In this document: piece after piece, positions 7,805 to 30,274 of the stretch
Position numbering within the stretch: position 1 is the first letter of the stretch
Layout: each line of letters opens with the position of its first letter
Assembly: GCA_964608075.1 (NCBI GenBank)
Contig: CAZSMG010000003.1
Location: 1-54,389 of the forward strand
DNA from: an uncultured Clostridium sp.
GTDB lineage: Bacteria > Bacillota > Clostridia > TANB77 > CAG-508
Direction of reading: 5' to 3'
Length of the DNA stretch: 54,389 bases
Notes under the pieces: model-generated
Told to the model about the DNA's origin: nothing
The model's input: the letters and a program-made list of their open reading frames with translations, nothing else
The model's database searches: none
Position numbers and translations under genes: made by a program

Positions 7805-9949
7805 ATGAAAATTGAAAAGATAAAAAATATCTTATATAAAGTAATGCTTGTAATTCTATTTATATTAGCTTCATATGTTACATATTGTTCGGTATTTAAT
7901 ATTTATGATTCAAAAGAAGTTTTAAGCCCAATAGTCATTATATTAGGAACAATAGTAAGTATATGTTTATTTATTGCTTTAAAAAAAGCATTTACTAAAT
8001 TACAAGAAAAGACTTCAAATAAAATAGCTGTAATTATTTGCATTATATTTTTTATTGCATTAATAATATTTGGAAAAGTAGTAATGGCAATTCCAGGTTA
8101 TGATGCAGCAGACTTACAACAACAAGCAATAAAAATGTTAGATAATAGTGGCAAGTTTAATGATGAGGAATATTTTTCAATATATACAAATCAAGTGCCA
8201 GCAACAATATTAATATATTATATATATAAAATTGGAATTATACTAGGCATATCAAATTTAAGAATGTTTGCAACTATAATAAATGCATTATTTATAGCTA
8301 TAACAGCATTTTTTACATATATGTCTGTTAAAAAACTAAAAGACTATAAGTTGGCATTAATAACATTAGTATTTTTTGTACTAAATCCAATATTTTATTT
8401 ATACACATCTTATTATTATACAGACACATTGTGCATGCCATTTGCTGCAACTGCAATGTATCTGTTTATATCTGCTATAAAATCTGATAATAGGAAAAGG
8501 GCAATATTATCATTAGTTGGAAGCGGAATAATAGTAATGCTTGGATTTAAAATAAGAGCAGTTCTTATAATATTGCCAGTAGCTATGATATTACAAATAA
8601 TATTAAACAATAAAATTAACAAAAAAACATTGATAAATTTATCAAGTATTATCATAGGTGCTTTTATTGGAGTTATAATATATACATTAATTGCAATTCC
8701 TTTTAATGTACCAAAAGATAAAGATACAGAATTTCCTGCATTACATTGGGTAATGATAGGATTAAACAAAGAAACTGATGGAGCATGGACAGATACAGAA
8801 TATAAATACACAAAAAAATATGAAACAGCAGAAACAAAAAAACAAGCAGATTTAAAAATAATAAAGAAAAGACTAAAAGAATTAGGAATAAAAGGATATT
8901 ATGATTTATCTAAAGTAAAGCTTTCGCAAACATGGTCAAATGGACAATATCATGCATGGGATCATTTAGACAATGTAGAAGATTTTAACATAGTTTATGA
9001 ATATGTAAACGGAAATAAACAAAAATTTATGCTTTATTATTTACAAATTTGTAAGACATTATTATTGCTATTGTTTACAATATCTGTAGCAAAAGAAATA
9101 TTAAAAAAAGATGAAGAAAAATTAAATGGTTTTATTTATATATCAATATTTGGAGCATTTTTATTTTATATGCTATGGGAAGTAATGTGCAGATATAGTT
9201 TATCATTTTTACCATGGATGATTCTCGCATTTGGAACAGGAATAACTATATTAGAAGATATGTTAAATAAATGTAAAAAAATGATATACAAAGATAAACC
9301 AGTAGTTATAGGCAAAGCAGAAATAGTAATTGTACTTATATCTGCAACAATTGTTTTACTTGCTTATAACTATCCAAAATATACAATACAAGAAAATATA
9401 TATAAGGATAAAGTAATTGTTCAAAATAAAGTAAGAGGTTTAGAACTTAAAAAAATATCAAATAAGAAAATAGAGCAAACTTTTAAAACTTCTAAAGAAT
9501 TTAATATAATTTCTATAGAATTTTTAAAAGGATATTCAAAAAATGAAACAACTACAACACATTACAAGTTTACTTTGTATGATGAAAATAAAAGTATTTT
9601 AAATGAGCAAGACTTTACAAGTGGTGATGTAAAAAGTTGGAGGTCAAAAGAATTTAAGTTTAATACTCAAATTCCAAATGGAGAAAAACAATATACTTTT
9701 GAAATAACATCAAGTGATGCAACAGAAGATAATTGTATAGGTATATCATCATATTTTCAAGAATATTACTCAGTTTACAAAGATGGAACTTTAAAAGTTA
9801 ATGATGAAGAAATAAAAGATGCAGATTTAAGATTTATGGTTAAAAACGAAAATAGCAGAACTTATACAAGTAAAATGTTTTATGTAATAATATCTATAAT
9901 GATATTGATAATAGAGGGAATGTTATTTTATATAATTTATAAGAATTGA
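7805..9949 (+). CDS. GT-C fold membrane glycosyltransferase (ArnT/PMT-like) with extracytoplasmic C-terminal domain
   Basis: ATG at 7805 follows AAGAGGAAAA; the track start at 7784 is TTG. At least 10 hydrophobic helices occupy the first ~520 aa. A ~170-aa soluble beta-rich region and a final TM helix follow. The gene sits directly downstream of the GtrB-like gene. Confidence 0.65.
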   Translation: MKIEKIKNILYKVMLVILFILASYVTYCSVFNIYDSKEVLSPIVIILGTIVSICLFIALKKAFTKLQEKTSNKIAVIICIIFFIALIIFGKVVMAIPGYDAADLQQQAIKMLDNSGKFNDEEYFSIYTNQVPATILIYYIYKIGIILGISNLRMFATIINALFIAITAFFTYMSVKKLKDYKLALITLVFFVLNPIFYLYTSYYYTDTLCMPFAATAMYLFISAIKSDNRKRAILSLVGSGIIVMLGFKIRAVLIILPVAMILQIILNNKINKKTLINLSSIIIGAFIGVIIYTLIAIPFNVPKDKDTEFPALHWVMIGLNKETDGAWTDTEYKYTKKYETAETKKQADLKIIKKRLKELGIKGYYDLSKVKLSQTWSNGQYHAWDHLDNVEDFNIVYEYVNGNKQKFMLYYLQICKTLLLLLFTISVAKEILKKDEEKLNGFIYISIFGAFLFYMLWEVMCRYSLSFLPWMILAFGTGITILEDMLNKCKKMIYKDKPVVIGKAEIVIVLISATIVLLAYNYPKYTIQENIYKDKVIVQNKVRGLELKKISNKKIEQTFKTSKEFNIISIEFLKGYSKNETTTTHYKFTLYDENKSILNEQDFTSGDVKSWRSKEFKFNTQIPNGEKQYTFEITSSDATEDNCIGISSYFQEYYSVYKDGTLKVNDEEIKDADLRFMVKNENSRTYTSKMFYVIISIMILIIEGMLFYIIYKN

Positions 9950-9967
9950 AAATATACTAAAAAGTCA

Positions 9968-9996
9968 TTGTGAAAAATTGGAAAATAAAGTAAAAT
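9968..9996 (+). promoter_or_regulatory. promoter of small-peptide (toxin-like) transcript 1 (TTGTGA-17-TAAAAT)
   Basis: -35 and -10 hexamers with a 17-nt spacer, immediately upstream of the conserved leader. Confidence 0.55.
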
Positions 9997-10006
9997 AAAT
10001 ACATCC

Positions 10007-10025
10007 TTTTCAAAGGAAATCTTTG
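10007..10025 (+). repeat. conserved 19-nt leader TTTTCAAAGGAAATCTTTG, copy 1
   Basis: Identical to 25431-25449. Contains a CAAAG-GAAAT-CTTTG hairpin. The adjacent TCCTTT (10004-10009) is complementary to the SD region AAAGGA (10028-10033). Confidence 0.8.
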
Positions 10026-10043
10026 GGAAAGGAGGTACATAAA

Positions 10044-10130
10044 ATGTCATCTTTTGACTTAATTTGGCGTTTAATTGTTTTGCTACTATTAAGTATCAAG
10101 AATAATGATGACCGGAACAATGAAGACTAG
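10044..10130 (+). CDS. 28-aa hydrophobic peptide, candidate type I toxin (MSSFDLIWRLIVLLLLSIKNNDDRNNED)
   Basis: Strong SD GGAAAGGAGGT 7 nt upstream of the ATG. One TM-length hydrophobic stretch plus an acidic tail. Has its own promoter and terminator. Below the ORF-track cutoff. Confidence 0.65.
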   Translation: MSSFDLIWRLIVLLLLSIKNNDDRNNED

Positions 10131-10144
10131 AAACTAGTCTTAGT

Positions 10145-10176
10145 CTAGGTAGTCTGCCAACTGCCTAGATTTTTTT
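10145..10176 (+). terminator. rho-independent terminator of peptide transcript 1
   Basis: CTAGGTAG-tctgccaa-CTGCCTAG stem (one G-U pair) followed by T7. A GACTAG-AAA-CTAGTC hairpin precedes it at 10125-10139. Confidence 0.75.
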
Positions 10177-10180
10177 ACGC

Positions 10181-10251
10181 AAAAAAAAAGATATAGACTG
10201 CCATCTATACCTTTGTACATAATTGTCATCTCTTTGACTTTTGCTTAAGCT
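10181..10251 (-). ncRNA. candidate antisense sRNA (antitoxin RNA 1), about 70 nt; ends approximate
   Basis: Minus-strand consensus promoter at 10258-10286. Minus-strand hairpin TATAGA-tggcag-TCTATA followed by a U-run (complement of A9 at 10181-10189). Carries the complement of 10224-10240, which matches the peptide's start-codon region. Confidence 0.55.
10224..10240 (+). repeat. direct repeat of the peptide-1 translation initiation region
   Basis: TGTCATCTCTTTGACTT matches TGTCATCTTTTGACTT at 10045-10060 (16 nt identical, one inserted C). Confidence 0.85.
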
Positions 10252-10257
10252 AAATAT

Positions 10258-10286
10258 AGTATACTATATTTTTTAGTATATGTCAA
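10258..10286 (-). promoter_or_regulatory. minus-strand sigma-A promoter (TTGACA-17-TATACT) driving sRNA 1
   Basis: Reverse complement reads TTGACAtatactaaaaaatatagTATACT. A near-identical element recurs at 27358-27385. Confidence 0.7.
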
Positions 10287-10373
10287 ATTTTTACTAAAAA
10301 TTCATATATAAAAAATATTACTGAAAATATTCAAAAATACTATGGAAAAGTATGTCAAAAAAGCCCAAAAATA

Positions 10374-10402
10374 TTGACAAATAACACATAAAAAACTATA
10401 AT
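10374..10402 (+). promoter_or_regulatory. consensus sigma-A promoter (TTGACA-17-TATAAT) for the dlt-like operon
   Basis: Perfect hexamers, 52 nt upstream of the ATG at 10454. Confidence 0.7.
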
Positions 10403-10453
10403 TAAAAAGGTTGTTGCAAGATAAAAGTATAATTTGTGAAAATAGGAGGAAAA

Positions 10454-11962
10454 ATGAAAAGAACTATATTAGAAATTTTAGAGGAAACAGCTAATAAATT
10501 TCCAGATAAAGTAATTTATGAAGATATTAATCGTGAAATAACATACAAAGATTATATTAAAAATTGTAAAAAAATAGGAAGTGCATTAGCAGAGAAAATA
10601 CAAGACATAAATAAACCAATAGCAATATATATAGATCGTTCTGTTACATGCTTAGAAACAATGATGGGTGTAACATATAGTGGAAATTATTTTGCAGTTT
10701 TAGATATAAAATCACCTAAAGAGAGAAATAATTTAATAATAAATACATTACCAGATATTTCAATCATTGTAGAAAAGAAAAATATTGAAAAACTTAAAGA
10801 CTTAGACTTTAAAGGAAAAATATACATATATGAAGAATTAATAGAAAATAAAATTGACGAAGAAAGATTAACTCAAATAAGAAATAAAATAATTGATACA
10901 GATCCAATGTATGCACAATTTACATCAGGATCAACAGGTGTTCCTAAAGGAATAATAATATGCCATCGTTCTGTAATGGCATATGCTTACAATATAAAAG
11001 AAACATTTAAAATAGATGAACATACTAAATTTGGTAATGAACCACCATTTTATTTCAGTATGTCAACATTAGAAATATATACAACAATGATTAGTGGAGC
11101 AACAATGGTAATTATACCTAAAATGTATTTTTCATTTCCAATTAAATTGTTAGAATTTTTAAAAGAAAAGAAAATTAATACAATATATTGGGTACCATCT
11201 GTTCTTTGTATTGTTGCTAATATGAAAGCATTAGATGAAATGGAATTACCAGATTTAAAAAAAGTAATGTTTGCTGGAGAAGTAATGCCAGTAAAACAAT
11301 TAAATATATGGATAGAACACTTACCAAATGCAATGTTTGCAAACTTATGTGGGCCAACAGAAATAACAGATATATGTACATATTATATTGTTGATAGAAA
11401 ATTTGATAATTCAGAAAGTCTTCCAATAGGTAAAGCATGTTACAATTGTGATGTATTAATAATAAAAGAAGATGGAACTAAAGCAAAAGTAGGAGAAGAA
11501 GGAGAACTTTGCGTAAGAGGTTCATTCTTAGCATTAGGTTATTATAATAATCCAGAAAAAACAAGCCAAGCATTTATACAAAATCCATTAAATACTGCAT
11601 ATCCTGAAATAATATATAAAACAGGTGATATTGTAAAAGAAAATGAAAGAGGAGAAATAATTTATCTTTCTAGAAAAGATTTTCAAATAAAACATATGGG
11701 ATATAGAATAGAATTAGGAGAAATAGAAAATGCAATTAATAATATAGAAGGAATTATATCATGTGCATGTGTATATGATACTGAAAACAAAAAGATTGTT
11801 TTATATTATCAAGGGAAAGATCTTTCAGAAAAAGAATTGTTATCACAAGCAAAAACAAAATTGCCAAATTATATGTGTCCTAACGAAATACATAAATTGG
11901 ATCAAATGATTTATAATGCAAATGGAAAAATTGACAAAAATAAATTAAAATCAATAAATTAA
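10454..11962 (+). CDS. amino-acid adenylation enzyme, DltA-like (D-alanine--carrier protein ligase family)
   Basis: ATG at 10454 follows AGGAGGA. ANL-superfamily core motifs: FTSGSTGVPKG, GELCVRGSFLALGYY, YKTGD, FQIKHMGYRIELGEIE, NGKIDKNKL. About 500 aa, a stand-alone A domain like DltA. Confidence 0.75.
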   Translation: MKRTILEILEETANKFPDKVIYEDINREITYKDYIKNCKKIGSALAEKIQDINKPIAIYIDRSVTCLETMMGVTYSGNYFAVLDIKSPKERNNLIINTLPDISIIVEKKNIEKLKDLDFKGKIYIYEELIENKIDEERLTQIRNKIIDTDPMYAQFTSGSTGVPKGIIICHRSVMAYAYNIKETFKIDEHTKFGNEPPFYFSMSTLEIYTTMISGATMVIIPKMYFSFPIKLLEFLKEKKINTIYWVPSVLCIVANMKALDEMELPDLKKVMFAGEVMPVKQLNIWIEHLPNAMFANLCGPTEITDICTYYIVDRKFDNSESLPIGKACYNCDVLIIKEDGTKAKVGEEGELCVRGSFLALGYYNNPEKTSQAFIQNPLNTAYPEIIYKTGDIVKENERGEIIYLSRKDFQIKHMGYRIELGEIENAINNIEGIISCACVYDTENKKIVLYYQGKDLSEKELLSQAKTKLPNYMCPNEIHKLDQMIYNANGKIDKNKLKSIN

Positions 11963-11982
11963 AATATATGGGGGTAAAAATT

Positions 11983-12210
11983 ATGGAGAAATTATTAGAA
12001 ATATTAAAAGGAATTAAACCAGAAGTTGACTTTGAAGGTAATGAACATTTAATTGATAATGAAGAATTAGACTCTTTATCAATAGTAGAAGTCGTATCAG
12101 CAATTGATGATGAATTTGATGTAGAAATAGGTGTAACAGATATTATACCAGAAAACTTTAATTCAGTAGAAGCAATTTGGAATTTAATTCAAAAATTATT
12201 AGATGAATAA
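11983..12210 (+). CDS. acyl/D-alanyl carrier protein (DltC-like)
   Basis: 75 aa, acidic, with phosphopantetheine-attachment Ser in ELDSLSIVE. ATG at 11983 follows GGGGGT. Confidence 0.75.
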   Translation: MEKLLEILKGIKPEVDFEGNEHLIDNEELDSLSIVEVVSAIDDEFDVEIGVTDIIPENFNSVEAIWNLIQKLLDE

Positions 12211-12244
12211 TTAACTAAAAATAAATAGAAAAAAGGGGATAAAA

Positions 12245-13837
12245 ATGACAATAAATTCATTAAGCTTTATAGCTTTTGTAGCAATAGTTGCTATCATTTA
12301 TTTTATTTTCCCTAAAAAAGCTAGATGGGTAGTTTTATTAGTTGCAAACTATGTATTCTATTCAATTTGTAGCAATTGGCTAATTATTTATATGTTAGTA
12401 ACAACACTATCAATATATTTAGTTGCACTAAAAATGGGAAAAATAGATGTTAAAACAAAAGAAATAGTAAAAAAAGAAGAAAATAGAGAAAAGAAAAAAG
12501 AGATAAAAAATAAAGCAAAGACAAAGAAAAAATGGCTAGTTGCAATAGCTGTAATTATAAACTTTGGAATTTTAATTTATTTAAAATACTCTAATTTCTT
12601 ATCTGAAAATATAAATGGATTATTTAATATAGTAAAAATACCAATAGAAATACCATTTAGACAAATATTGCTTCCACTTGGAATATCTTATTATACATTA
12701 CAAGCAATTAGCTATGTTATAGATGTATATCGTGGAAAATATTTACCAGAAAAACATTTAGGTAAATTAGCATTATTTGTATCATTCTTTCCACAAATGG
12801 TCGAAGGACCAATTGGCAGATATGATGAATTAGGACACCAATTATATGAGCCACATAAATTTGAATATACAAGAGTAAAATTTGGAATTCAATTAATGCT
12901 GTGGGGATATTTTAAAAAGATGGTAATAGCAGATAGAGCAGGATTATTTGTTAATGAGGTATTTGCAAATTATAGTCAATATTTAGGAATACCAATATTC
13001 TTTGCAGCAGCTTTATATACTATTCAAATATATGCGGAATTTTCAGGATGTATTGATATAGTAAGAGGTGTAGCACAAATACTTGGTATAAATATGGCAG
13101 AAAACTTTAAAAGACCATTTTTCTCAAAATCAGTTCAAGAGTTTTGGAGAAGATGGCATATAACACTTGGAACATGGTTTAAAGACTACATATTTTATTC
13201 AGTATCTTTTTCAAAATTAACACAAAACATTACAACATTTGCTAAAAAAGTATTTAAGACAAGTTATATTGCTAAACTTATACCAGCAATATTTGCACTA
13301 TTTTTTGTATGGTTTGGAAATGGTATTTGGCATGGAGCAAGCTGGAAATACATTTGTTATGGAATGTATTATTATGTAATAATGGTATTAGGAATGGTAT
13401 TTGAACCATTAATGAATAAAATATTAAAATTATTAAAAATAAACAAAGAAACATTTAGCTATAGTTTTATGCAAATGGTAAGAACAACATTATTTGTAAT
13501 AATAGGAATGCTATTATTTAGATCTCCAGATTTAAATATTTTTGGACAAATGTTTACAGGAATATTTACAAGAGAACATTTAGAAATGTTATCAAATGGA
13601 AAAATATTTGAAATAGGATTAACGCAAGCTGATTTTGTTGTAATAGTAATTGGTGTAATAATAATGTTTGTAGTAGGTATTTTGCAAGAGCAAGGACATA
13701 AATTAAGAGAAGATATTTCAAAACAAAATCTGCCTTTTAGATGGATATTATATTATTCTATAATATTTGCAATTATTATATTTGGAATATATGGACCAGG
13801 CTATGTAGCAACAGACTTTATATATGGTCAATTTTAG
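12245..13837 (+). CDS. MBOAT family O-acyltransferase (DltB/AlgI-like)
   Basis: Polytopic membrane protein. MBOAT signature: FWRRWHITLGTWFKDYIFY with catalytic His, and WHGASW. Confidence 0.85.
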   Translation: MTINSLSFIAFVAIVAIIYFIFPKKARWVVLLVANYVFYSICSNWLIIYMLVTTLSIYLVALKMGKIDVKTKEIVKKEENREKKKEIKNKAKTKKKWLVAIAVIINFGILIYLKYSNFLSENINGLFNIVKIPIEIPFRQILLPLGISYYTLQAISYVIDVYRGKYLPEKHLGKLALFVSFFPQMVEGPIGRYDELGHQLYEPHKFEYTRVKFGIQLMLWGYFKKMVIADRAGLFVNEVFANYSQYLGIPIFFAAALYTIQIYAEFSGCIDIVRGVAQILGINMAENFKRPFFSKSVQEFWRRWHITLGTWFKDYIFYSVSFSKLTQNITTFAKKVFKTSYIAKLIPAIFALFFVWFGNGIWHGASWKYICYGMYYYVIMVLGMVFEPLMNKILKLLKINKETFSYSFMQMVRTTLFVIIGMLLFRSPDLNIFGQMFTGIFTREHLEMLSNGKIFEIGLTQADFVVIVIGVIIMFVVGILQEQGHKLREDISKQNLPFRWILYYSIIFAIIIFGIYGPGYVATDFIYGQF

Positions 13838-21590: not shown

Positions 21591-23510
21591 ATGAGCGAAT
21601 TAGTAGCAAAAATTGAAAATAATAAATTAATAATTGAAAAGAAGAGAGCAAGACAAACGAATCAAGATATAGAAATAATCCAATTAGAACAATTAGAAAA
21701 TGATAAACATTACAAGTCTAAAGTAGTATTATCTAGTATAGAACAAGCTAATCAAATAATTTTATCAGAACAAACCTCATATACTTTTATTGATGAAAAA
21801 ATGGAAACAAGAAATATCTATATAGTAGTGTATACACAAGGAAAAAAGGTATATTATTTTTTAGGAGATATAAGAAAAGTATATAAAAAATTAGTAAAAG
21901 TCCCATTTAAAATTACTGGATTAAGTTTAAATAGTAAAAGATTTTCTATAAATATGTATGCATATGTAATTAATAAATATAATTTAAATATTACAAATAA
22001 AATGTTTGTTGTTAATGAATTTATAAAAAAAGATATAAAACTTACAGAACATATAATTAAAATGTCTAAATTCAAACTACTATTTTCTAAAAATAAATTT
22101 AATGTGAAAGTTAGTAAAAACGAGTTACTTAAAGAAGAAGTACCAATTAATAATGGATTAAAAATAGTGTTAGAAATAAATGGAGAAGAAATTGAATATA
22201 AAGTAGCAATTAAAAATAAAAAGATTCGAAACTCGAAATATTATTATACTCCAATAAAAACACAATATATAGGAGATTTTGCTTTTCATATAAGGAGATC
22301 TCTTAATGGTAAATTAGTTTTAGTAAAAAGATTAAAAGAACCAATAGAAGATACTCTTAGATTTAAATTATTAGAAAATAAATTTGTTTCTATAATTCTG
22401 TATTTTTTAGGACAAGTAGGAAAGAAACTTAGAACAAAGAATGTTAATATATATTATGAAAAATTCTGTTCAAAAATTGAAGAAGGGGCATATGATATAT
22501 ATGCTAAATGCAAAAATAGTAAAACTTCTAAAAATTACTTTATTTTAAGTAAAGATTCAGATGATTTTGAAAGAGTAAAAAATGATAAAAATGTAATAAA
22601 ACAATATTCATTTAAATATTATTGGTTAATATATAATGCTAATTATGCTATTGCTACTGAAGCACAAAGTCATTTAAATGTATTAAGATCTAATAATAGA
22701 TGGCTTAGAAAAGCAACATATAATATCAAATTTATATTTTTACAACATGGTATTACATATTTAAAATCACATTCTATGAATTCAACTTTTGTAACTGGTA
22801 AAGAAGGAGAACAAGAATATATAGTAGTTGGTAGTGAAAAAGAACAAAATATAGTATCTGATATGTTTAAAATAGATGAAGATAAAATACTTGTAACAGG
22901 TCTTCCTATATTTAGTAACTTAAAATATAAACATATTAATCAAGATTCAGATGATTTTATTACAATTATGCTAACATGGAAACCATATGAAGAATATATA
23001 TATAATTTTGAAGAATCTACTTATTATGAATATATTATAGATATATATAATATACTTTCTAAATATATAGATAAAGAGAAAATAGCAATAGTTGCTCATC
23101 CAAAAGTATACGATTTACTAGAAAGTACAGATATGAAAGATAGTATATGGCAAGGCAAAATTTCAGAGATATTAGAAAAAACAAAAATGTTAATAACAGA
23201 TTATTCTTCAGTATGTTATAATTCATTTTATCAAGGAGCAGGAGTAGTTTTTTATCAACCAGATTTAGAGATGTATCAAACATATAATGGAGAATTGATA
23301 CCAACAGATGATGAATACATAGGAAAGAGAGCATTTGATATTCAACAATTAGAAACCATAGTTAAAGAAACTATAGTAAATAAAAAGATAAATTTAAGTA
23401 AAATAAGAAATAAAGAGTTTGAAGAAAAATATTCTACAATAAATGAATTTTCTGATGGAAAAAATATAGATAGAATATATGAAAAATTAAAAGAATTAAA
23501 TATAATATAA
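21591..23510 (+). CDS. CDP-glycerol glycerophosphotransferase family protein (TagF-like) with novel N-terminal ~300 aa
   Basis: C-terminal TagF motifs: FLQHGITYLK, LTWKPY, LITDYSSVCYNSFYQGAGVVFYQPD. The N-terminal half is unrecognised. Confidence 0.75.
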   Translation: MSELVAKIENNKLIIEKKRARQTNQDIEIIQLEQLENDKHYKSKVVLSSIEQANQIILSEQTSYTFIDEKMETRNIYIVVYTQGKKVYYFLGDIRKVYKKLVKVPFKITGLSLNSKRFSINMYAYVINKYNLNITNKMFVVNEFIKKDIKLTEHIIKMSKFKLLFSKNKFNVKVSKNELLKEEVPINNGLKIVLEINGEEIEYKVAIKNKKIRNSKYYYTPIKTQYIGDFAFHIRRSLNGKLVLVKRLKEPIEDTLRFKLLENKFVSIILYFLGQVGKKLRTKNVNIYYEKFCSKIEEGAYDIYAKCKNSKTSKNYFILSKDSDDFERVKNDKNVIKQYSFKYYWLIYNANYAIATEAQSHLNVLRSNNRWLRKATYNIKFIFLQHGITYLKSHSMNSTFVTGKEGEQEYIVVGSEKEQNIVSDMFKIDEDKILVTGLPIFSNLKYKHINQDSDDFITIMLTWKPYEEYIYNFEESTYYEYIIDIYNILSKYIDKEKIAIVAHPKVYDLLESTDMKDSIWQGKISEILEKTKMLITDYSSVCYNSFYQGAGVVFYQPDLEMYQTYNGELIPTDDEYIGKRAFDIQQLETIVKETIVNKKINLSKIRNKEFEEKYSTINEFSDGKNIDRIYEKLKELNII

Positions 23511-23513
23511 ATG

Positions 23514-23547
23514 CAAAAAAATATCACTATTTAAGTGATATTTTTTT
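23514..23547 (+). terminator. rho-independent terminator
   Basis: ATATCACT-attta-AGTGATAT hairpin flanked by an A-run and T7. Confidence 0.75.
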
Positions 23548-23548
23548 G

Positions 23549-23577
23549 TTGAAATAATTAATAATAAATGATACAAT
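23549..23577 (+). promoter_or_regulatory. sigma-A promoter with extended -10 (TTGAAA-17-TGaTACAAT)
   Basis: Hexamers and spacing lie upstream of the CAP-domain gene. Confidence 0.55.
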
Positions 23578-23615
23578 GTTCACATATTTCGTATATAAAA
23601 AAGGGGGGAATTTAT

Positions 23616-25358
23616 ATGAAATTAAAAAAATTATTATTAAGTATTTTAATAGTTGCGGTATTTAGCATTATTACATCAATTACTTCAAATGCAGCAAATG
23701 AGACAATATCATTTAATGTAAATGTAGCTAATGATTATACATCAGCATATGAAGTATTAGAATTAGTAAATAAAGAAAGAAAAGCAGAAGGACTAAATGA
23801 GTTAAAAATGGACAAAGATTTATTAGATGCTGCAATGATTCGTGCAAGTGAATTAGTATTAAATTTTAGTCATACTAGACCAAATGGAACAAGTTGCTTT
23901 ACAGCAATAAATAAACCATTTAGTCATATGGGAGAAAATATAGCAGCAGGGCAATCAACATCAAAATATGTAATGCAATGTTGGATGGAATCACCAGGTC
24001 ATAAAGCAAATATTTTAACAGGAGATTTTACATCTATAGGTATTGGTTGTGTAAAATATGGAAATGTTCCATATTGGGTACAATTATTTGGAGAATCTAA
24101 TACAATAACTCCAGCTGTAAAACTTAATAATAGTAAAATAACAAGAAAAGTAGATATGTTATCTAGTGATGTACAATTATATTATAATTCTATGAAAGAG
24201 ATATTTAAAGGAGATTACAAAAACGGGTTTGAAACAACAATAGTAGTTCTTAATCCTGGATGGCAAGGAAGATGTACTACAATAGACCCAAATGATCTTA
24301 TTTTTGAAAGTTCAGATAAATCGGTATTTATTGTAGATAATAAAGGAATTTTAAAATTTAATTCAGCAGGAAAAGCATATTTAACAGCTACATTAAAGCA
24401 AAATAAAAACATAAGTGTAAAAAAAGAAATAAATGCAATAGTAAGAATGTATGAATTAAAATTAGATGATATAAAAGACCAAATATTTACAGGTAAAGAT
24501 ATTAGACCAGAAGTTACAATAAAAGATGGAGATTATACCTTAGTAAATAATAAAGACTATAAAATAACATATACAAATAATAAAAAATATGGAAAAGCAA
24601 CAGCTAAAATAGAGTTAATTGGAAGTTACTTGGGAACTGCTGAAAAAACATTTAACATAGTTCCTCCTAAAGTAACAAAACTTAAGGTTAAATCTACATC
24701 AACAAATACTATAAATTTAACTTGGAAAAAGACAAATGGAGTAACAGGTTATAAAGTATATTTATATGATTATTCAAAAGGTAAATATAAATACTATGGA
24801 AAAACAAATAAAACATCTATCAAAATTAAAAATTTAAAATCTGGTACAAAATACAAAGTAAGAGTAAGAGCATATAAAAGCGTAAATGGAACTCAGTATT
24901 TTGGAGAATATACTACAGCATTAAAAACAACAACCACTCCTAAAAAAGTGACAAATTTAAAAACTAAATCAAAATCTAAAAATAGTATAAAATTAAGTTG
25001 GAAGAAATCAAATGGATCAACAGGATATAAAGTATATGTGTATAACACTAAAACAAAAAAATATGAATACTATGGAAAAACAAGCAAAACATCTATTACA
25101 ATTAAAAAATTAAAATCAGGTAAATCATATAAAATAAAAGTTAGACCATATAAAACAATTGAAGGAAAGCAATATTTAGGAGAAAATTCTGGTGCTATAA
25201 AAGTATCTATTAAAAGCACAAGTAAAAAAGTATATATAACTCCTAAAGGAAAAAGATATCATTTAAATAAGAATTGTGGAGGAAAGAATTCATATTCTGT
25301 AAATATTAATACTGCAACGTCTTATGGACTAACTGCTTGCAAAAAATGCTCTAAATAA
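23616..25358 (+). CDS. secreted CAP/SCP (YkwD-like) domain protein with two fibronectin type III repeats and a C-terminal Cys motif
   Basis: ATG at 23616 follows AAGGGGGGA. Signal peptide is MKLKKLLLSILIVAVFSIITSITSNA. CAP motifs: SHTRPNG, GENIAAG, WMESPGHKANIL. Two ~90-aa FN3-like repeats (INLTWKK..GYKVYLY, IKLSWKK..GYKVYVY). Tail: KRYHLNKNCGG...LTACKKC. Confidence 0.75.
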   Translation: MKLKKLLLSILIVAVFSIITSITSNAANETISFNVNVANDYTSAYEVLELVNKERKAEGLNELKMDKDLLDAAMIRASELVLNFSHTRPNGTSCFTAINKPFSHMGENIAAGQSTSKYVMQCWMESPGHKANILTGDFTSIGIGCVKYGNVPYWVQLFGESNTITPAVKLNNSKITRKVDMLSSDVQLYYNSMKEIFKGDYKNGFETTIVVLNPGWQGRCTTIDPNDLIFESSDKSVFIVDNKGILKFNSAGKAYLTATLKQNKNISVKKEINAIVRMYELKLDDIKDQIFTGKDIRPEVTIKDGDYTLVNNKDYKITYTNNKKYGKATAKIELIGSYLGTAEKTFNIVPPKVTKLKVKSTSTNTINLTWKKTNGVTGYKVYLYDYSKGKYKYYGKTNKTSIKIKNLKSGTKYKVRVRAYKSVNGTQYFGEYTTALKTTTTPKKVTNLKTKSKSKNSIKLSWKKSNGSTGYKVYVYNTKTKKYEYYGKTSKTSITIKKLKSGKSYKIKVRPYKTIEGKQYLGENSGAIKVSIKSTSKKVYITPKGKRYHLNKNCGGKNSYSVNINTATSYGLTACKKCSK

Positions 25359-25390
25359 TGAAAATGTCATTTTGTGTCGAACGAAAAATA

Positions 25391-25420
25391 TTGTAAGACT
25401 ATTAACTTTAAATATATAAT
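25391..25420 (+). promoter_or_regulatory. promoter of small-peptide transcript 2 (TTGTAA-18-TATAAT)
   Basis: Hexamers lie immediately upstream of the conserved 19-nt leader. Confidence 0.5.
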
Positions 25421-25430
25421 ATTATCATTC

Positions 25431-25449
25431 TTTTCAAAGGAAATCTTTG
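25431..25449 (+). repeat. conserved 19-nt leader TTTTCAAAGGAAATCTTTG, copy 2
   Basis: Identical to 10007-10025. Confidence 0.8.
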
Positions 25450-25460
25450 TGAGTGGTGTT

Positions 25461-25565
25461 ATGAGTAATTCTGATCTAGTTTTGAAGTTAGTAGAAATGC
25501 TTCTTGAATCTGAAAAGAAACAAAAAGATAATATTAATTATCAAGAGAGCAAAAGAAAAAATTAG
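25461..25565 (+). CDS. 34-aa small peptide, candidate (possibly degenerate) type I toxin paralog (MSNSDLVLKLVEMLLESEKKQKDNINYQESKRKN)
   Basis: ATG at 25461, inside the longer track ORF 25374-25565. Leader, terminator and convergent-promoter layout match the 10044 peptide. It is less hydrophobic than peptide 1. Confidence 0.45.
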   Translation: MSNSDLVLKLVEMLLESEKKQKDNINYQESKRKN

Positions 25566-25582
25566 TACATAACTAATTAAAA

Positions 25583-25617
25583 AGAGATAGTAATTCGCAG
25601 TTACTATCTCTTTTTTT
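25583..25617. terminator. bidirectional rho-independent terminator
   Basis: Perfect 11-bp stem AGAGATAGTAA / TTACTATCTCT with a 7-nt loop. An A-run lies upstream and T7 downstream. Confidence 0.85.
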
Positions 25618-25621
25618 GATA

Positions 25622-25646
25622 TTATGATAACTCTAATCTTATTTTG
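25622..25646 (+). repeat. direct repeat of the peptide-2 translation initiation region
   Basis: TTATGATAACTCTAATCTTATTTTG versus TTATGAGTAATTCTGATCTAGTTTTG (25459-25484). 21 of 25 positions are identical with one gap. Three of the four differences would give G-U pairs in an RNA duplex. Confidence 0.7.
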
Positions 25647-25664
25647 TTATCTTAAACTACTTAT

Positions 25665-25693
25665 ATTCTACTACTTAAAACTTAAATTGTCAA
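25665..25693 (-). promoter_or_regulatory. minus-strand sigma-A promoter (TTGACA-17-TAGAAT) driving sRNA 2
   Basis: Reverse complement reads TTGACAatttaagttttaagtagTAGAAT. Confidence 0.6.
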
Positions 25694-25758
25694 ACTTATT
25701 AAGATATATTCAGTAAAAATTTACTTTTTTAATTTAATCTTTAATTTAAGAACAAATG

Positions 25759-25788
25759 TTTGACAATAAAATGAAAATATTATATAAT
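25759..25788 (+). promoter_or_regulatory. consensus sigma-A promoter (TTGACA-18-TATAAT)
   Basis: Perfect hexamers upstream of the small ORFs and the Bro-N gene. Confidence 0.65.
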
Positions 25789-25816
25789 ATGTAAAAATAA
25801 TTAAGGACGTGATAAT

Positions 25817-26011
25817 GTGAATTTAACAGAACTAAAAAAAGAAATTATAAAAAATACAATAGAAGGTTATAAAGTAAAAACTAATTTCATTTCATGTGAT
25901 TTTTTAGTGCAAATTGGAGGATTTATTATCATTGCGAAACCAATTTATTTAGAAAAAGAAGTAAGGTATGAATTTAGTTGGATACACAATTTTTATCAAA
26001 TAAAGAAGTGA
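25817..26011 (+). CDS. hypothetical small protein (64 aa)
   Basis: GTG start follows AAGGACGTG. No family recognised. Overlaps the next ORF by 34 nt in another frame. Confidence 0.4.
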   Translation: MNLTELKKEIIKNTIEGYKVKTNFISCDFLVQIGGFIIIAKPIYLEKEVRYEFSWIHNFYQIKK

Positions 26012-26202
26012 CTTACAAAGAAATAGTTATGATAAAAAATATAATTGATTTATTAAACAAAAATAAAAAGTTAGCTTTATCAAAGTTGAAAAAATGGAAA
26101 ATTGAAGAATATATAGAAGACAAAAGACAAAGAGAACTGAGAAGTGAGCAAATGTTAGAAGCATTGAAGAGTGCTTTTGTAAACAGAACAAAATCTATAT
26201 GA
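25978..26202 (+). CDS. hypothetical small protein (74 aa, charged/helical)
   Basis: TTG start 10 nt after AAGGT. No family recognised. Could be the downstream part of a frameshifted gene together with 25817-26011. Confidence 0.35.
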   Translation: MDTQFLSNKEVTYKEIVMIKNIIDLLNKNKKLALSKLKKWKIEEYIEDKRQRELRSEQMLEALKSAFVNRTKSI

Positions 26203-26242
26203 GTTTTTAAAATTGTATATATTTATAAGGAGGTACTTTTAT

Positions 26243-27112
26243 ATGAATAGTAATAACAAATTAGAAACAATATCAAATCTTTTTGAAGGAATAGAAATAA
26301 GAAGTATATGGAATACAGAAAAAGAAGAATATTTTTTTAGTGTAGTTGATGTTATTAGTGCATTGACAGATAGTAAAATTCCAAGGAATTATTGGAGTGA
26401 TTTAAAACGAAAATTAATAGAAGAGGGAAGTGAGTTGCACGAAAAAATCGTGCAACTGAAATTAAAATCAAATAAAGATGGAAAAAGATATATTACAGAT
26501 ACCTTAGATACGGAAGGAATCATAAGATTAATAGAGTCAGTTCCAAGTTCAAAGGCAGAACCTTTCAAATTATGGCTTGCATCTTTAGGTAAAGAAAGAA
26601 TAGATGAGGTCTTTGATCCAGAAATAGCAGTTAATAGAGCAATTGATTATTATAGAAGTAAAGGATATTCAGATAAATGGATTGAATCAAGACTTAAAGG
26701 AATATTGGATAGAAAAAGATTGACTGATATTTGGAAAGAAAATGGTATTAAAGAAAATTACGAATATGCAGTTTTAACAAATGATATATATAAAACTTGG
26801 TCTGGAATGAAAGCATCAGAATATAAAAATTATAAAAATATTAGGAAAGAGTCTTTAAGAGATAATATGACAGATGTAGAGGTAGCTCTTACAGATTTAG
26901 GAGAAATTGCAACTCGTGAACTTGCAAAAAAGCATAGACCACAAGGATTAAAAGCAAATAGAAAGATTGCAAAGGAAGGAGGAGAAGTTGCTAAAACGGC
27001 TCGTGATGATTTAGAACAAAAACTTGGAGAAACAATTATTAGTAAAGAAAATAGATTGAATTATAAATATTTAGAAGATAATAAAAAACTAGAAGATAAA
27101 AATAGTAATTAA
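26243..27112 (+). CDS. Bro-N domain protein with DinD-like C-terminal region (phage antirepressor-like)
   Basis: ATG at 26243 follows AAGGAGGT. N-terminal Bro-N-like FEGIEIRSIWNTEKEEYFFSVVDVISALTDS. C-terminus SLRDNMTDVEVALTDLGEIATRE parallels the DinD-like fragment at 2-328. Confidence 0.7.
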   Translation: MNSNNKLETISNLFEGIEIRSIWNTEKEEYFFSVVDVISALTDSKIPRNYWSDLKRKLIEEGSELHEKIVQLKLKSNKDGKRYITDTLDTEGIIRLIESVPSSKAEPFKLWLASLGKERIDEVFDPEIAVNRAIDYYRSKGYSDKWIESRLKGILDRKRLTDIWKENGIKENYEYAVLTNDIYKTWSGMKASEYKNYKNIRKESLRDNMTDVEVALTDLGEIATRELAKKHRPQGLKANRKIAKEGGEVAKTARDDLEQKLGETIISKENRLNYKYLEDNKKLEDKNSN

Positions 27113-27357
27113 GATGAAACTACTTAATTTAATAAATATAAAAATAGCAAATGTAAAAGTAGATATAAGCACTATAAAAACAGAAAATACCTCAATTAAA
27201 ATTGAAGACAGGAAAGTGAGTATTAACATATCGTCTACATACATTGAAGGGCAAACTTTCAGGACTTAATACTTGAGAAAGGAAGGTTAATTTTGAAAGT
27301 ACAAGTTATAGAGAAGAAATAAAAGGGAATTTAAGAGTATATGCCTATGCAAGAGTT

Positions 27358-27385
27358 AGTATACTATATTTTTATTATATGTCAA
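27358..27385 (-). promoter_or_regulatory. orphan copy of the minus-strand sRNA promoter (TTGACA-16-TATACT)
   Basis: Reverse complement reads TTGACAtataataaaaatatagTATACT, near-identical to 10258-10286. No adjacent toxin-like ORF or leader was found. Confidence 0.5.
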
Positions 27386-27460
27386 AAGATATTAGAATAT
27401 TTACAAAAAATTTAGTCGACATTTTTCTACATATTAATTTTAAAATATTGTAGTATTTTA

Positions 27461-27489
27461 TTGACTATAAAAAACTATTAGAGTATTAT
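27461..27489 (+). promoter_or_regulatory. sigma-A promoter (TTGACT-17-TATTAT) for the yfhO-like operon
   Basis: Hexamers and spacing, 35 nt upstream of the ATG at 27524. Confidence 0.5.
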
Positions 27490-27523
27490 ATATTAAGAAA
27501 ATAATAAAGGGAAAAGTAGATAG

Positions 27524-30274
27524 ATGAAGGAAAAGATAAAAGAAAAAATCAAACAAATATATCCAAAAATAAATGTATATTTAATATACACAATTTTATT
27601 TACAATTTTATCATTTTTAATATATTACATATTTCTAAATTCAGGAAAAAGTTTTATATGGCAAGAAGATGGGCTAAAGCAACATTTTGCAATATTATAT
27701 AATTTTAACGAAACTATAAGAAATGTATTTACAAATGGTATTAATCTTTTTTCTTGGGAAACAGGACTTGGACTAGATGTAATAGGTCAATATTCTTATT
27801 ATATATTAGGAGACCCATTTGCATACTTAAGTTTATTATTTCCAATGAACAAATTAGAATTAGCATATAATGCATTAATAATTATTAGAATGTATTTTGT
27901 AGGAATAGCATTTTTAGCATTTTGTAAATACAATAAAAAAGATAACTTTAATTCTATATTAGGATGTATAATATACACTTTTTCTGGATTCATATTATAT
28001 TCAGGGGTAAGACATCCATATTTTTTAAATGCAGCAATTTTATTACCATTAGTATTTTTAGGAATAGATAAACTTTTAAAAGAAGATAAAATAAACTTTT
28101 TTATAATTATGATTGCTATTACAGCAATTGTAAATTACTATTTCTTATATATGATTACAATTTTAGGTATTATATATGGATTAGTAAAATATAGATCAGA
28201 ATATAAAAACAAAGGAATAAAAGTATTTTTAAATAAACTTTTAAAAGCATTTTTAGGCTATATTATAGGTATATTAATTGCTGGAATAATATTACTTCCA
28301 ACAATATATAGTTATTTAAATTCAAATAGATTAACAAATTGTGAAAATGTAAAATATAATTTTAAATATTATGCAAGCTTATTTACAGGATTTACATCTA
28401 ATAATAGTTTATATTGGACACGAATATGTACAACATCATTTACACTAATAATGTTACCAGTAGCTTTTGTTAATAGAAATAAAAATAAAGAAAATAGAAC
28501 ATTTTTTATAAGTATATTAATAACAACAATTATGTTATTAATTCCATTTTGTAGCTCACTAATGAATGGATTATCATTTAGTACAAATAGATGGGTATTT
28601 GGCTATGTATTTTTACTTTCATATATGATAGTATTAAATTTTAGAAAAGATTTAAAATATACAAAAGAAGAATTAGCATATATGGTTTTAACATTAGTTG
28701 TATATTGTATAGGAATAGTATTTTGCAAGGGAAAAGCAGAAATAAGAATATCACTAATTACTACTTTTTTAGCTATAATTATGTTTTCTATAATAGCTTT
28801 AATAAATATGCTTAAAAATAAAGATAAAACAAAATATGAAAACATATTTAGTTATGGAAAATATGCTATATTTTGCTTAATTATTATTAATATAGTATTT
28901 TGTGGATATAATTTATATTCAAAATCAGGTAAAAAATATATTAAAGAATTTATAAAATCTGGTAAAGTTACACAAAAGTATGATAATTATAATAATAAAA
29001 TAAAAGGATTTGACAAAGCAATAGAAAAAATTAAAGACGATGATAATACTTTTTATAGAATTTCTACAAACAAGTATAATTATCCTAATATATCACTAGT
29101 ACATAATTATAAATCATTAAATTCATATTTATCTGTAGGAAATAAATATGTGGGAAAATTATCTAAAGAACTTCAAAATAGATTATATAATTCAGATACA
29201 AATCCATTAAAAGAGTTTGACAATAGAACTAAAATTACAACATTACTTGGAACAAAATATTTTGTTGTAAATGAGAAGAATAAAGAATATGTACCATATG
29301 GATATAATTTATATAGAGAAATATCACAAAAAAATAAAACAACACAAATATATAAAAATCAAAACAATTTAGGACTAGGCGTATTTTATGATAATTATAT
29401 ATTACAAGAACAATATAATAAATTAAATGCATTAGAAAAAGAACAAATTATATTAGACACAGCAGTTTTAGAACAAGAACCTAAGAATAATATTTTAAAA
29501 AATGTAGATATAGTAGATAAAGTAAAATCAAGTACTTGTGTAAATGTAAAATATAAAATTAGAAACAACAAAATTTTAAAGCAAAATAAAATAACCACAA
29601 CAAAGAAAAATCAAAAATTAGTACTAGATATTGATAAAATAGAAAATAGCGAATTATATTTAGTAATACAAAACTTTGACTATGATGGAACTGAAAAAAA
29701 TGATATTAAAATTAATTATAAAAACATTAAAAAAGTACAAAAGTTTAGAGATAAAGAAGTAGATCCATATTATTCTTATAATCCAAATATATTAATAAAT
29801 TTAGGCTATAGCAAAATACATAATGGAAAAATCGAAATACAATTTACAAACAAAGGAGAATATAGTTTTAAGAAAATATATGTTATAGCAGTCTCAATGG
29901 ATTCTTATGATAAAAGTATACAAAAGTTAAAACAGACTAAGTTTAACTTAGAAAAATATGAAAATGATGAAATTATAGGCAATATAAAAAATGACAAATC
30001 AGGAATATTACAATTATCAATACCATATACAAAAGGTTGGACAGCATATGTAGATAGTAAAAAGGTTGATACAACTATAGTAAATACAGCATTTGTTGGA
30101 ATTGCTTTAGAAAAAGGAAATCATAATATAGTTTTAAAATATGAAACTCCATATTTAAAACTAGGAATAATATTTAGTATTATAGGTGTAATAGTGTTTA
30201 TATTTATAACTATATATCAAAAAAGCATTATGGAAAAAAAGATTAAAAATGGTGATAAGGATGGAAATAAATAA
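27524..30274 (+). CDS. YfhO family membrane protein (GT-C type extracytoplasmic glycosyltransferase)
   Basis: 916 aa. Many TM helices in the first ~480 aa, a large soluble C-terminal part and a terminal TM helix. N-terminal FIWQEDGLKQHFAILYNF is typical of the YfhO family. Confidence 0.7.
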   Translation: MKEKIKEKIKQIYPKINVYLIYTILFTILSFLIYYIFLNSGKSFIWQEDGLKQHFAILYNFNETIRNVFTNGINLFSWETGLGLDVIGQYSYYILGDPFAYLSLLFPMNKLELAYNALIIIRMYFVGIAFLAFCKYNKKDNFNSILGCIIYTFSGFILYSGVRHPYFLNAAILLPLVFLGIDKLLKEDKINFFIIMIAITAIVNYYFLYMITILGIIYGLVKYRSEYKNKGIKVFLNKLLKAFLGYIIGILIAGIILLPTIYSYLNSNRLTNCENVKYNFKYYASLFTGFTSNNSLYWTRICTTSFTLIMLPVAFVNRNKNKENRTFFISILITTIMLLIPFCSSLMNGLSFSTNRWVFGYVFLLSYMIVLNFRKDLKYTKEELAYMVLTLVVYCIGIVFCKGKAEIRISLITTFLAIIMFSIIALINMLKNKDKTKYENIFSYGKYAIFCLIIINIVFCGYNLYSKSGKKYIKEFIKSGKVTQKYDNYNNKIKGFDKAIEKIKDDDNTFYRISTNKYNYPNISLVHNYKSLNSYLSVGNKYVGKLSKELQNRLYNSDTNPLKEFDNRTKITTLLGTKYFVVNEKNKEYVPYGYNLYREISQKNKTTQIYKNQNNLGLGVFYDNYILQEQYNKLNALEKEQIILDTAVLEQEPKNNILKNVDIVDKVKSSTCVNVKYKIRNNKILKQNKITTTKKNQKLVLDIDKIENSELYLVIQNFDYDGTEKNDIKINYKNIKKVQKFRDKEVDPYYSYNPNILINLGYSKIHNGKIEIQFTNKGEYSFKKIYVIAVSMDSYDKSIQKLKQTKFNLEKYENDEIIGNIKNDKSGILQLSIPYTKGWTAYVDSKKVDTTIVNTAFVGIALEKGNHNIVLKYETPYLKLGIIFSIIGVIVFIFITIYQKSIMEKKIKNGDKDGNK

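Follow-up and report, generated by a model that had tools for sequence, protein, structure and literature searches.

The 54,389 nucleotides (nt) considered here, positions 1 to 54,389 of the forward strand of contig CAZSMG010000003.1 from an uncultured Clostridium sp. (assembly GCA_964608075.1), are referred to as the window. Between positions 25391 and 25693 they hold a compact arrangement, module 2, in which the gene of a 34-residue peptide and the predicted gene of a small antisense RNA (sRNA) converge on a common terminator; a window-wide scan finds only two modules of this kind, the other being module 1 (Table 1). From a predicted transcription start near 25427, the sense promoter of module 2 is followed by a leader whose 19-nt segment TTTTCAAAGGAAATCTTTG (25431-25449) is identical to 10007-10025 in module 1. 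These are the only two copies in the window with up to three mismatches allowed, and 0.11 would be expected by chance. Beyond the open reading frame (ORF), hairpin arms at 25579-25593 and 25601-25615 are complementary at 15/15 positions when the A and T runs are counted (core 11 bp), leaving the loop UUCGCAG on the mRNA and CUGCGAA on the sRNA.

The convergent promoters and the bidirectional terminator are sequence predictions, and so are transcription of both strands and the RNA ends, which were set by counting 7 nt on from each -10 box for the start and taking the terminator for the end. On these settings the two RNAs would be a mRNA of about 190 nt (mRNA2, 25427-25620) and a sRNA running from 25657 to 25574 (sRNA2). 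The predicted sRNA2 folds into an unpaired 5′ tail and the terminator (z = -5.3); the tail (25617-25657) is complementary to the start region of the peptide gene, and the 3′ end is the terminator hairpin. Complementarity resides in a direct repeat, 25459-25484 recurring at 25622-25646 with 21/25 positions matching and a 1-nt gap, and the four mismatches become three G-U pairs and one A-A in the RNA duplex. The repeat is absent from an ungapped repeat scan because the match requires the gap.

A sequence-only reading of the window had described the two promoters, the shared leader, the 34-codon ORF and its start codon, a perfect 11-bp hairpin between an A-run and a T-run, and the repeat with three of its four differences turning into G-U pairs. 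All of these elements are present, the hairpin being terminator-like on both strands and the repeat count holding with the gap. It had also likened the architecture to that of module 1; module 2 is supported as a diverged paralogue of it. Module 1 has two tandem terminators.

Table 1. Features of module 2 and of its sister module in the window
Feature	Position	Strand	Remarks
Sense promoter TTGTAA-18-TATAAT, module 2	25391..25420	+	10/12 consensus matches
5′ untranslated leader, module 2	25427..25460	+	contains the 19-mer (25431-25449) and a degraded ribosome-binding site (RBS), GAGTGGTG (25451-25458)
34-codon ORF, MSNSDLVLKLVEMLLESEKKQKDNINYQESKRKN	25461..25565	+	ATG at 25461
Antisense-RNA target on module 2 mRNA (predicted)	25454..25484	+	from the remnant RBS via the start codon to codon 8
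Shared bidirectional intrinsic terminator (single, predicted)	25579..25615	both	terminator-like by scan; 0.1 such sites expected
Predicted antisense RNA, ~84 nt	25574..25657	-	ends placed from promoter and terminator
Antisense promoter TTGACA-17-TAGAAT	25665..25693	-	11/12 consensus matches
Sister module 1	9968..10286	+	same leader, hydrophobic peptide MSSFDLIWRLIVLLLLSIKNNDDRNNED, two tandem terminators, own antisense RNA
Module 1 mRNA terminator	10143-10176
Module 1 small-RNA terminator	10188-10214

A family of peptide-sRNA modules in gut Clostridia

The leader leads to a large family. An exact 19-mer scan with one genome per species returned at least 118 loci, and 96 of the 118 listed are true modules, in which TTG..-TATAAT is followed by 7 nt, ATCC, the leader, nGAAAGGAGG and a small ORF; a search anchored on the antisense promoter found the same architecture in 79 of 103 metagenome loci. 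Nearly all carriers come from gut samples and bear the label uncultured Clostridium sp. or Clostridia bacterium, with humans, rodents, rabbits and ruminants as hosts; they include Clostridium sp. CAG:508, CAG:245 and CAG:440 and one closed chromosome of 1.55 Mb. At 90% identity a profile of the peptides retrieves 596 clusters, at 50% identity it gives 189 representatives with E < 0.001, and no cluster matched by the profile bears a name or a Pfam domain.

The sense promoter follows the consensus TTGT..-TATAAT-7 nt-ATCC at a constant distance to the leader, with the -10 box in place in 79 of 83 loci. Just past the repeat, an antisense promoter matching the consensus at 11-12 of 12 positions is found in 79/84 loci, 64 of which read TTGACA-17-TATACT, and most relatives have two tandem terminators with matching loops, one per RNA. 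Typical leaders are predicted to fold as UCCUUUUCAAAG-GAAAU-CUUUGnGAAAGGA, i.e. UCCUUUUCAAAG-GAAAU-CUUUG-n-GAAAGGA, a structure that buries most of the RBS; 5′ segments of typical members that contain it fold at -12.3 to -14.7 kcal/mol. Among the 103 antisense-anchored loci, 28 have the exact 19-mer, 51 have variants with the invariant core AAGGAAATCTTT and 24 have no detectable leader. In a pair table anchored on this core, the closing pair of the upper stem is C-G, A-U, U-A or U-G with a few mismatches, a variation that lends modest support to the leader hairpin. A two-hairpin RNAalifold consensus of the ungapped leader alignment was set aside as uninformative, indels shifting its register.

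Known families, plasmids and viruses yield next to nothing. Pfam, NCBIfam (E up to 10) and PHROGs return nothing relevant for five representative peptides, a MerR_2 match of a class 3 peptide (E = 0.023; classes below) being judged a chance hit; a Protein Data Bank sequence search with the family profile gives no match, a full-text search of the accessible literature with five peptide motifs no paper, a degenerate back-translated pattern for DLVLKLVEMLL no match in JGI metagenomes, and a whole-window Rfam search at gathering thresholds no match. Likewise, PLSDB plasmids and INPHARED phages give no blastn match to the module, and among 2.9 million IMG/VR contigs there is one true module only, a complete class 1 module (L243, IMGVR_UViG_3300045988_157112), a second 19-mer match in this viral catalogue (L244) being a chance occurrence inside a coding region. 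The module is chromosomal.

Several further features of the family were seen. Some single genomes of about 1.5 Mb contain two or three modules of different classes (JAAWOE, JAGBDU, CAPNAQ, DXVF, CAOKPI), and hydrophobic and amphipathic modules lie about 5 kb apart in L019 and L075. The loci lacking a leader include L120, L123, L124, L130, L132, L153 and L207; in those examined, the small-RNA terminator, repeat and promoter are present and the peptide gene is absent or a 3′ remnant (L122, L225), L124 directly following a tRNA. The figure of 24/103 is an upper bound for antisense genes without a peptide gene, since at least one of these loci, L131, has a module whose leader lies beyond the 5-substitution filter. 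Gene callers frequently start the ORF too far upstream and read through the leader, for example as MLLSFSKEIFGKGGVIQ ahead of the true peptide (P0116-P0119, P0009, P0011 and P0025 among others), and database lengths of family peptides are inflated because of these calls.

Predicted cognate pairing and covariation

The predicted RNAs of module 1 are mRNA1 (10003-10178) and, on the minus strand, sRNA1 (10250 to 10179). RNAduplex assigns -32.2 kcal/mol to mRNA2 with sRNA2 and -29.5 kcal/mol to mRNA1 with sRNA1, against -15.5 kcal/mol for mRNA2 with sRNA1 and -10.4 kcal/mol for mRNA1 with sRNA2; none of 1000 dinucleotide shuffles reaches either cognate energy (z = -6.6 for module 2 and -6.2 for module 1). 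The earlier proposal that each sRNA matches its own initiation region rather than that of the other copy is in keeping with these energies. The pattern extends to the family: the start-region repeat is found 80-100 nt after the stop codon in nearly every locus, covers about -10 to +20 around the start and varies in sequence by peptide class, yet follows the start region of its own locus. Cognate duplexes have a mean of -33.2 kcal/mol across 84 family loci and rank among the best 5% in 63 of them, the mean of 5014 non-cognate pairs with dissimilar start regions being -21.8 kcal/mol.

The terminators covary as well. In 65 of the 67 loci with two detectable hairpins, the two loops have a common word of at least 5 nt (mostly 6-9 nt), and 23 distinct words occur, for example CTGTCGC, TGGTCAA, TCTCTAC, CTACCAC and TTAGTGG; among 3806 non-cognate loop pairs, a word of at least 5 nt is found in 66 and one of at least 6 nt in 2. 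The same plus-strand word in both terminator loops makes the loop of the small RNA complementary to that of the mRNA, and, as judged from these comparisons, the sharing of loop words is the signature of a selected loop-loop contact. In module 1, the loop words GTCTGCCAAC (10150-10162) and GACTGCCATC (10194-10206) have CTGCCA in common, with CUGCCA/UGGCAG as the predicted kissing pair. In module 2 loop complementarity is automatic, a single hairpin being common to both RNAs. It is on covariation that the case for an antisense RNA rests.

Three details of the pairing may be recorded here. The repeat almost always has a 1-nt indel or a mismatch at or beside the start codon (in many loci; in the window at 25465 and 10042-10046), the predicted duplex would thus bulge near the start codon, and the repeat copy is often without a start codon. 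RNAduplex also pairs CUUCUUGAAUC (25501-25511) with the extreme sRNA 5′ end, GUUUAAGA, in both orthologues (see below); this could be a second contact site, and chance is equally possible. In some class 1 loci (among L007, L025, L044, L058, L074, L078 and L083) the repeat reaches about 50 nt, and there the minus-strand -10 box TATACT falls within the copy of the codons ATA GTA TTA CTA, an arrangement suggesting that the small-RNA gene originated when the 5′ portion of the peptide gene was duplicated in tandem.

An orthologue and the loss of the ribosome-binding site

P0251 (MSNADLILKLVEMLLESEKKQEKNTNYQDNKRKD), the nearest peptide, has its gene at the corresponding position of other assemblies. 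At the orthologous locus L239 the flanking genes are those of the window, a CAP/fn3 gene upstream and a 74-residue ORF and a Bro-N gene downstream, and the alignment of the two shows conserved promoters, leader 19-mer and ORF. At ATG+10 (T/G), +12 (T/A) and +16 (C/T) the orthologues differ in the start region and the downstream repeat alike, and the terminator stem of L239 has undergone a two-sided change from GTAA/TTAC to GCAA/TTGC; these changes being two-sided, complementarity is actively maintained. Cognate duplexes of the orthologues are predicted at -32.2, -30.5 and -32.8 kcal/mol and crosses at -12.5 to -18.5 kcal/mol; from one orthologue to the other the cross-pairing is poor (-16 to -18 kcal/mol, cognates -30 to -32 kcal/mol), and the orthologues are mutually orthogonal in predicted pairing. 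The sequence-only reading had taken covariation as an argument for function; the compensatory changes in L239 and the family-wide covariation of repeats and loops bear it out, and complementarity is not lost in close relatives, L239 keeping its pairing through three two-sided changes.

The orthologues differ sharply in front of the start codon. L239 reads CATCC...GATATAGGAGGTGACTTTATG / CTTTGATATAGGAGGTGACTTTATG, a canonical RBS at ideal spacing (GGAGG-7-ATG), and nearly all other listed family loci have GGAGG or GGGGG 6-9 nt before the start codon. The window reads CATTC...CTTTGTGAGTGGTGTTATG, about six bases shorter than L239 and without GGAGG; here the lower stem of the leader cannot form, and the 48-nt 5′ segment folds at only -3.7 kcal/mol. 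The RBS-less allele is covered with zero differences by contigs of several independent gut metagenome runs, and the weak RBS remarked on earlier is not an assembly error, because these contigs agree. Because the orthologue has GGAGG-7-ATG, it is an allele-specific lesion and, on this comparison, a real one, in which the RBS and the masking stem were both lost through a short deletion and substitutions. With the ORF, the two promoters and the RNA-RNA complementarity intact, module 2 is most likely an allele attenuated in translation that has kept its antisense RNA. An initial caveat had been that this copy may be attenuated or degenerate: attenuation stands, and degeneration of the peptide does not, because its class is conserved and under purifying selection.

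In L242, which is more distantly related, there are two terminators, and their loops match (CTTCCATT); the single bidirectional hairpin of module 2 is thus derived, converging on the classical layout of par, the antisense-controlled system of Enterococcus faecalis pAD1 discussed below. The module of L242 is immediately followed by a T-box leader (1237-1464) that exceeds the gathering score, with 116 bits.

Identity between the window and L239 is uneven, with 75-81% in codons 1-8, the terminator and the repeat, 94% upstream in the CAP/fn3 gene and 99-100% downstream (window 25694-27112). Within the ORF, codons 9-21 (25485-25523) are identical to the orthologue at 39/39 nt, and flanking codons at 75-83%. 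A recombination boundary may lie near module 2; a fast-evolving interaction region was considered and not pressed, since such a boundary may contribute to the identity pattern.

Classes and properties of the peptides

The peptides fall into three classes. Class 1, which includes module 1, is hydrophobic, with 26-29 residues, the pattern M[ST]S[FY][DE]LIWRLIVLLLLS and an acidic tail; class 2, which includes module 2, is amphipathic, with 30-44 residues and the pattern MNNA[DE]LVW[RH]LVELLLQKEKDLNQVALDQAK and similar; class 3 has the pattern M[SN]GYMLIWILLQKIEKLEEELNTYKN. An N-terminal motif, [DE]L[IV]W[RH]L[IV], is common to the hydrophobic and amphipathic classes, and the module 2 peptide belongs to a tryptophan-less branch of class 2, [DE]L[IV]L[RK]L[VI]EMLL, with P0251, P0212, P0207, P0225 and others as relatives. 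The Kyte-Doolittle maximum over 19 residues is 0.18 for module 2, in agreement with the earlier description of its peptide as amphipathic and not clearly membrane-spanning, 0.06 for class 2 and 0.38 for class 3; it is 1.58 for module 1, 1.78 for the MTAFDLIFF subclass and 2.24 for the par toxin Fst. The model of a class 2 representative is a single unbroken helix (mean predicted local distance difference test score 84, above 88 over the first 30 residues), and in these predictions the family accordingly forms a series, built on one RNA chassis, that runs from borderline-transmembrane helices to amphipathic ones that are clearly soluble.

Ratios of non-synonymous to synonymous substitution (dN/dS) are 0.26 for class 2, 0.28 for class 1 and 0.22 for class 3, with 0.12-0.16 in the conserved core, values that mark the peptides as translated products under purifying selection; the amphipathic character of the module 2 peptide is, by the same comparison, that of a conserved class and not decay. 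Premature stops occur in 4 of 96 modules (L017, L070, L084, L029), where errors in metagenome-assembled genomes are possible; those of L017, L070 and L084 fall at the conserved tryptophan codon (TGG to TAG or TGA), a pattern that would agree with a harmful peptide being inactivated. Nonsense alleles, leaderless antisense loci, the RBS loss of module 2 and layered repression are hints of a cost to the cell. Harm by the peptide when made is thus presumed, and 'toxin' is, for the amphipathic classes, a working hypothesis.

A model of antisense control and its alternatives

Judged from the comparative evidence, module 2 is a genuine member of a large, undescribed family of antisense-controlled small-peptide genes with par-like control logic, and it is probably a type I toxin-antitoxin variant; this reading as a whole, with the mechanism that follows, is somewhat more probable than not. 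In the proposed mechanism, a moderate sense promoter would give rise to the ~190-nt mRNA for a 34-residue helical peptide, and a near-consensus convergent promoter to the ~84-nt RNA that stops at the same bidirectional terminator. The two RNAs may make first contact via their complementary terminator loops; the free 5′ tail of the small RNA would then zip onto the mRNA from the RBS region to codon 8, a presumed order of steps, and this pairing would block initiation and possibly trigger cleavage. Most members would have a third layer of repression, the first bases of the mRNA, AUCCUUUU, folding back on GAAAGGAGG and masking the RBS.

A number of observations weigh against this reading. Module 2 was found in no public RNA run searched; bovine metatranscriptome contigs contain conserved promoter and leader pieces of module 1 relatives, and these contigs, in which DNA may be present, do not tell the strands apart. 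No Pfam or NCBIfam family is related to the peptide profile, which also shows no hhalign relation to Fst (probability 0.7%), and the sole link to Rfam, RefA9, is below threshold and missing from the orthologue. Exact conservation of the 19-mer is partly a search artefact, as only 28 of the 79 leader-bearing antisense-anchored modules have it. Finally, the module 2 peptide and its whole class are without a transmembrane segment (maxima 0.06-0.38), and the usual membrane-toxin model does not appear to fit the amphipathic peptides. Conceivably, and we put this forward with some doubt, the amphipathic classes, module 2 among them, represent a new type of type I 'toxin' or effector, namely helical micro-proteins in soluble form whose target is cytoplasmic, or is the hydrophobic paralogue from another place in the genome, and which do not insert into the membrane. 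If this were true, the family would document a transition from membrane to soluble peptides within one RNA chassis, and would provide a natural library of mutually orthogonal address pairs, each made of a kissing loop and a start region.

The same RNA wiring could also serve amphipathic peptides (module 2, class 2, class 3) that are not toxins at all, namely soluble regulatory or protein-binding micro-proteins gated tightly by a cis-encoded antisense RNA, the par-like architecture having been co-opted or never having been a toxin-antitoxin pair. The peptides have no transmembrane segment and are predicted to be one long amphipathic helix, which speaks for this reading, and so do strong conservation of the first ~30 residues (dN/dS 0.16 in codons 9-29), which suggests a specific binding partner, an i/i+4 acid-base pair (D/E5 with R/H/K9) that is conserved together with [DE]L[IV]W[RH]L[IV] across both hydrophobic and amphipathic classes, and the occurrence of one module per class in a genome, sometimes 5 kb apart (L019, L075). 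Yet three stacked layers of repression and a near-consensus antisense promoter opposite a weaker sense promoter fit a harmful product, as do nonsense alleles, leaderless antisense loci and RBS loss, and the hydrophobic class 1 resembles classical type I toxins (Kyte-Doolittle maxima 1.6-1.8, acidic tail). We regard the non-toxic micro-protein as rather unlikely. Less likely still is a fully active module 2, in which enough peptide is made from the residual GGUG, 2 nt ahead of the AUG, or by translation of processed RNA, and the changed leader represents a different set-point. The ORF and both promoters are intact, the duplex is as strong as those of other members, the allele is stable across several metagenomes and the 39/39 identity of codons 9-21 would be in keeping with activity, but the GGAGG/GGGGG motif is gone and the spacing is 2 nt, whereas the orthologue and nearly all listed loci retain the motif at 6-9 nt; the masking stem is gone too, as expected once the masked site no longer matters.

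A chance resemblance in very AT-rich intergenic DNA, or a functionless remnant of a decayed mobile element, is the most improbable of the explanations. Promoter-like hexamers are indeed common (10 found against 8.0 expected in a 1-kb scan), and a phage-like Bro-N islet adjoins module 2. Against this, chance does not account for the leader, the repeat or the terminator, each of which is above expectation, purifying selection acts on the peptides, L239 has compensatory changes, one true module only occurs among 2.9 million viral contigs, and the full architecture recurs with covariation in hundreds of loci; the family-wide covariation effectively refutes it.

Genomic setting

The phage-like islet next to module 2 comprises a strong downstream promoter (25760-25788), a 64-residue ORF, the 74-residue ORF and the Bro-N protein at 26213-27112 (phrog_15286, E = 4e-100). 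Modules 1 and 2 are separated by 15 kb, and cell-envelope genes surround both (7784-13837 and 21591-30274). These genes encode a PMT_2 glycosyltransferase, an AMP-binding protein and an MBOAT protein directly after module 1, a CDP-glycerol glycerophosphotransferase, the secreted CAP/fn3 protein and YfhO.

Comparison with known systems

In par of E. faecalis pAD1, RNA I encodes Fst and RNA II is the antitoxin, and homologues include par_EF0409, the pTEF1 and pTEF2 copies, Fst-Sm/srSm and Lpt (PMC7472228). The traits described by Weaver (PMC7472228) and by Shioya et al. (PMC3166299) are convergent RNAs, a bidirectional terminator, direct repeats for pairing at the initiation region, a 5′ stem-loop over the RBS and, for paralogues in one cell, insulation by divergent repeats. 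Module 2 and its relatives resemble par in nearly all of these: a predicted convergent mRNA and small RNA ending at a bidirectional terminator, a start-region match that comes about via downstream direct repeats and not by overlap, complementary terminator loops (in module 2 and in relatives with two terminators), and paralogues insulated by divergent repeat sequences. An RBS-sequestering 5′ stem-loop is predicted for typical family members, not for module 2. With its single common terminator, module 2 is the closest mimic of the par layout.

The differences are equally clear. Family peptides are unrelated to Fst/Ldr and have no PXXXG motif; their tryptophan, where present, lies within the N-terminal helix and not between a transmembrane helix and the tail; and the class of module 2 is without a transmembrane segment. 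Most members have two tandem terminators with co-varying loop words, one long interrupted repeat stands in place of DRa and DRb, and the family is chromosomal and found in uncultured gut Clostridia. The Fst/Ldr family is characterized by a hydrophobic transmembrane helix, a tryptophan before a charged C-terminus and a P/D/S/T-XXX-G motif (PMC7472228). Module 2 lacks the tryptophan and PXXXG, and there is no Pfam match and an hhalign probability of 0.7%.

One resemblance to a par RNA has to be discounted. All 64 nt of the RefA9 model (RF02844, the par small RNA of pTEF1) can be aligned with minus-strand positions 25582-25647, the loop GCGAAU included, with 35.4 bits against a gathering score of 49 and E between 2e-4 and 7e-4. 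L239 and L241, the orthologues, show no RefA9 match, and neither do other relatives. The idea of homology to par RNA II was rejected on the ground that the orthologue lacks the match, and the resemblance is one of a short AU-rich tail and a hairpin only.

The SprA antisense RNA of Staphylococcus aureus overlaps the 3′ end of its mRNA yet blocks translation via a separate 5′ domain at the initiation region, and the PepA toxins, members of the Fst family with a PXXXGC motif, are membrane-lytic. Module 2 shares the separate 5′ domain of the antisense RNA that is predicted to pair with the initiation region, and differs in its peptide, the family having no detected sequence relation to the PepA toxins. 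The systems concerned are SprA1/SprA1AS and SprA2/SprA2AS, with PepA1 and PepA2 (PMC7472228).

The type I systems of Clostridioides difficile, CD2517.1-RCd8, CD2907.1-RCd9 and CD0956.2-RCd10, likewise combine small-peptide genes with convergent antisense RNAs (PMC6563280). There, the antitoxin has long complementarity to an overlapping convergent toxin mRNA, RNA degradation has been suggested, and the toxins, of 50-53 residues with a hydrophobic N-terminus and a lysine-rich tail, are encoded in prophages or beside CRISPR arrays (PMC6563280). The likeness lies in clostridial peptide genes with convergent antisense RNAs; in module 2, in contrast, overlap is limited to the terminator, pairing at the start would take place via a displaced repeat, and the peptide is unrelated and has 34 residues, so that neither long complementarity nor a lysine-rich toxin of 50-53 residues is found.

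What is familiar, then, is the control logic; what is new is the peptide family, the two-terminator kissing-loop design predicted for most relatives, and the existence of classes without membrane-spanning peptides. Apart from those of C. difficile, hardly any type I toxin-antitoxin systems are known from Clostridia (PMC6563280). Control of the par type had until now been linked with the Fst-family toxins of Bacilli. Here, hundreds of chromosomal modules with par logic and unrelated peptides are found in abundant, uncultured, small-genome gut Clostridia, their peptides unnamed in the protein resources searched and therefore missed by annotation pipelines. The allele in the window, in which translation signals of the peptide are knocked out and the antisense partner persists, would, if the peptides are toxic, be a snapshot of the taming of such a module. 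The family as a whole constitutes a covariation data set for RNA-RNA recognition at two sites, loop-loop and start region, and shows how paralogues, and even orthologues, become orthogonal.

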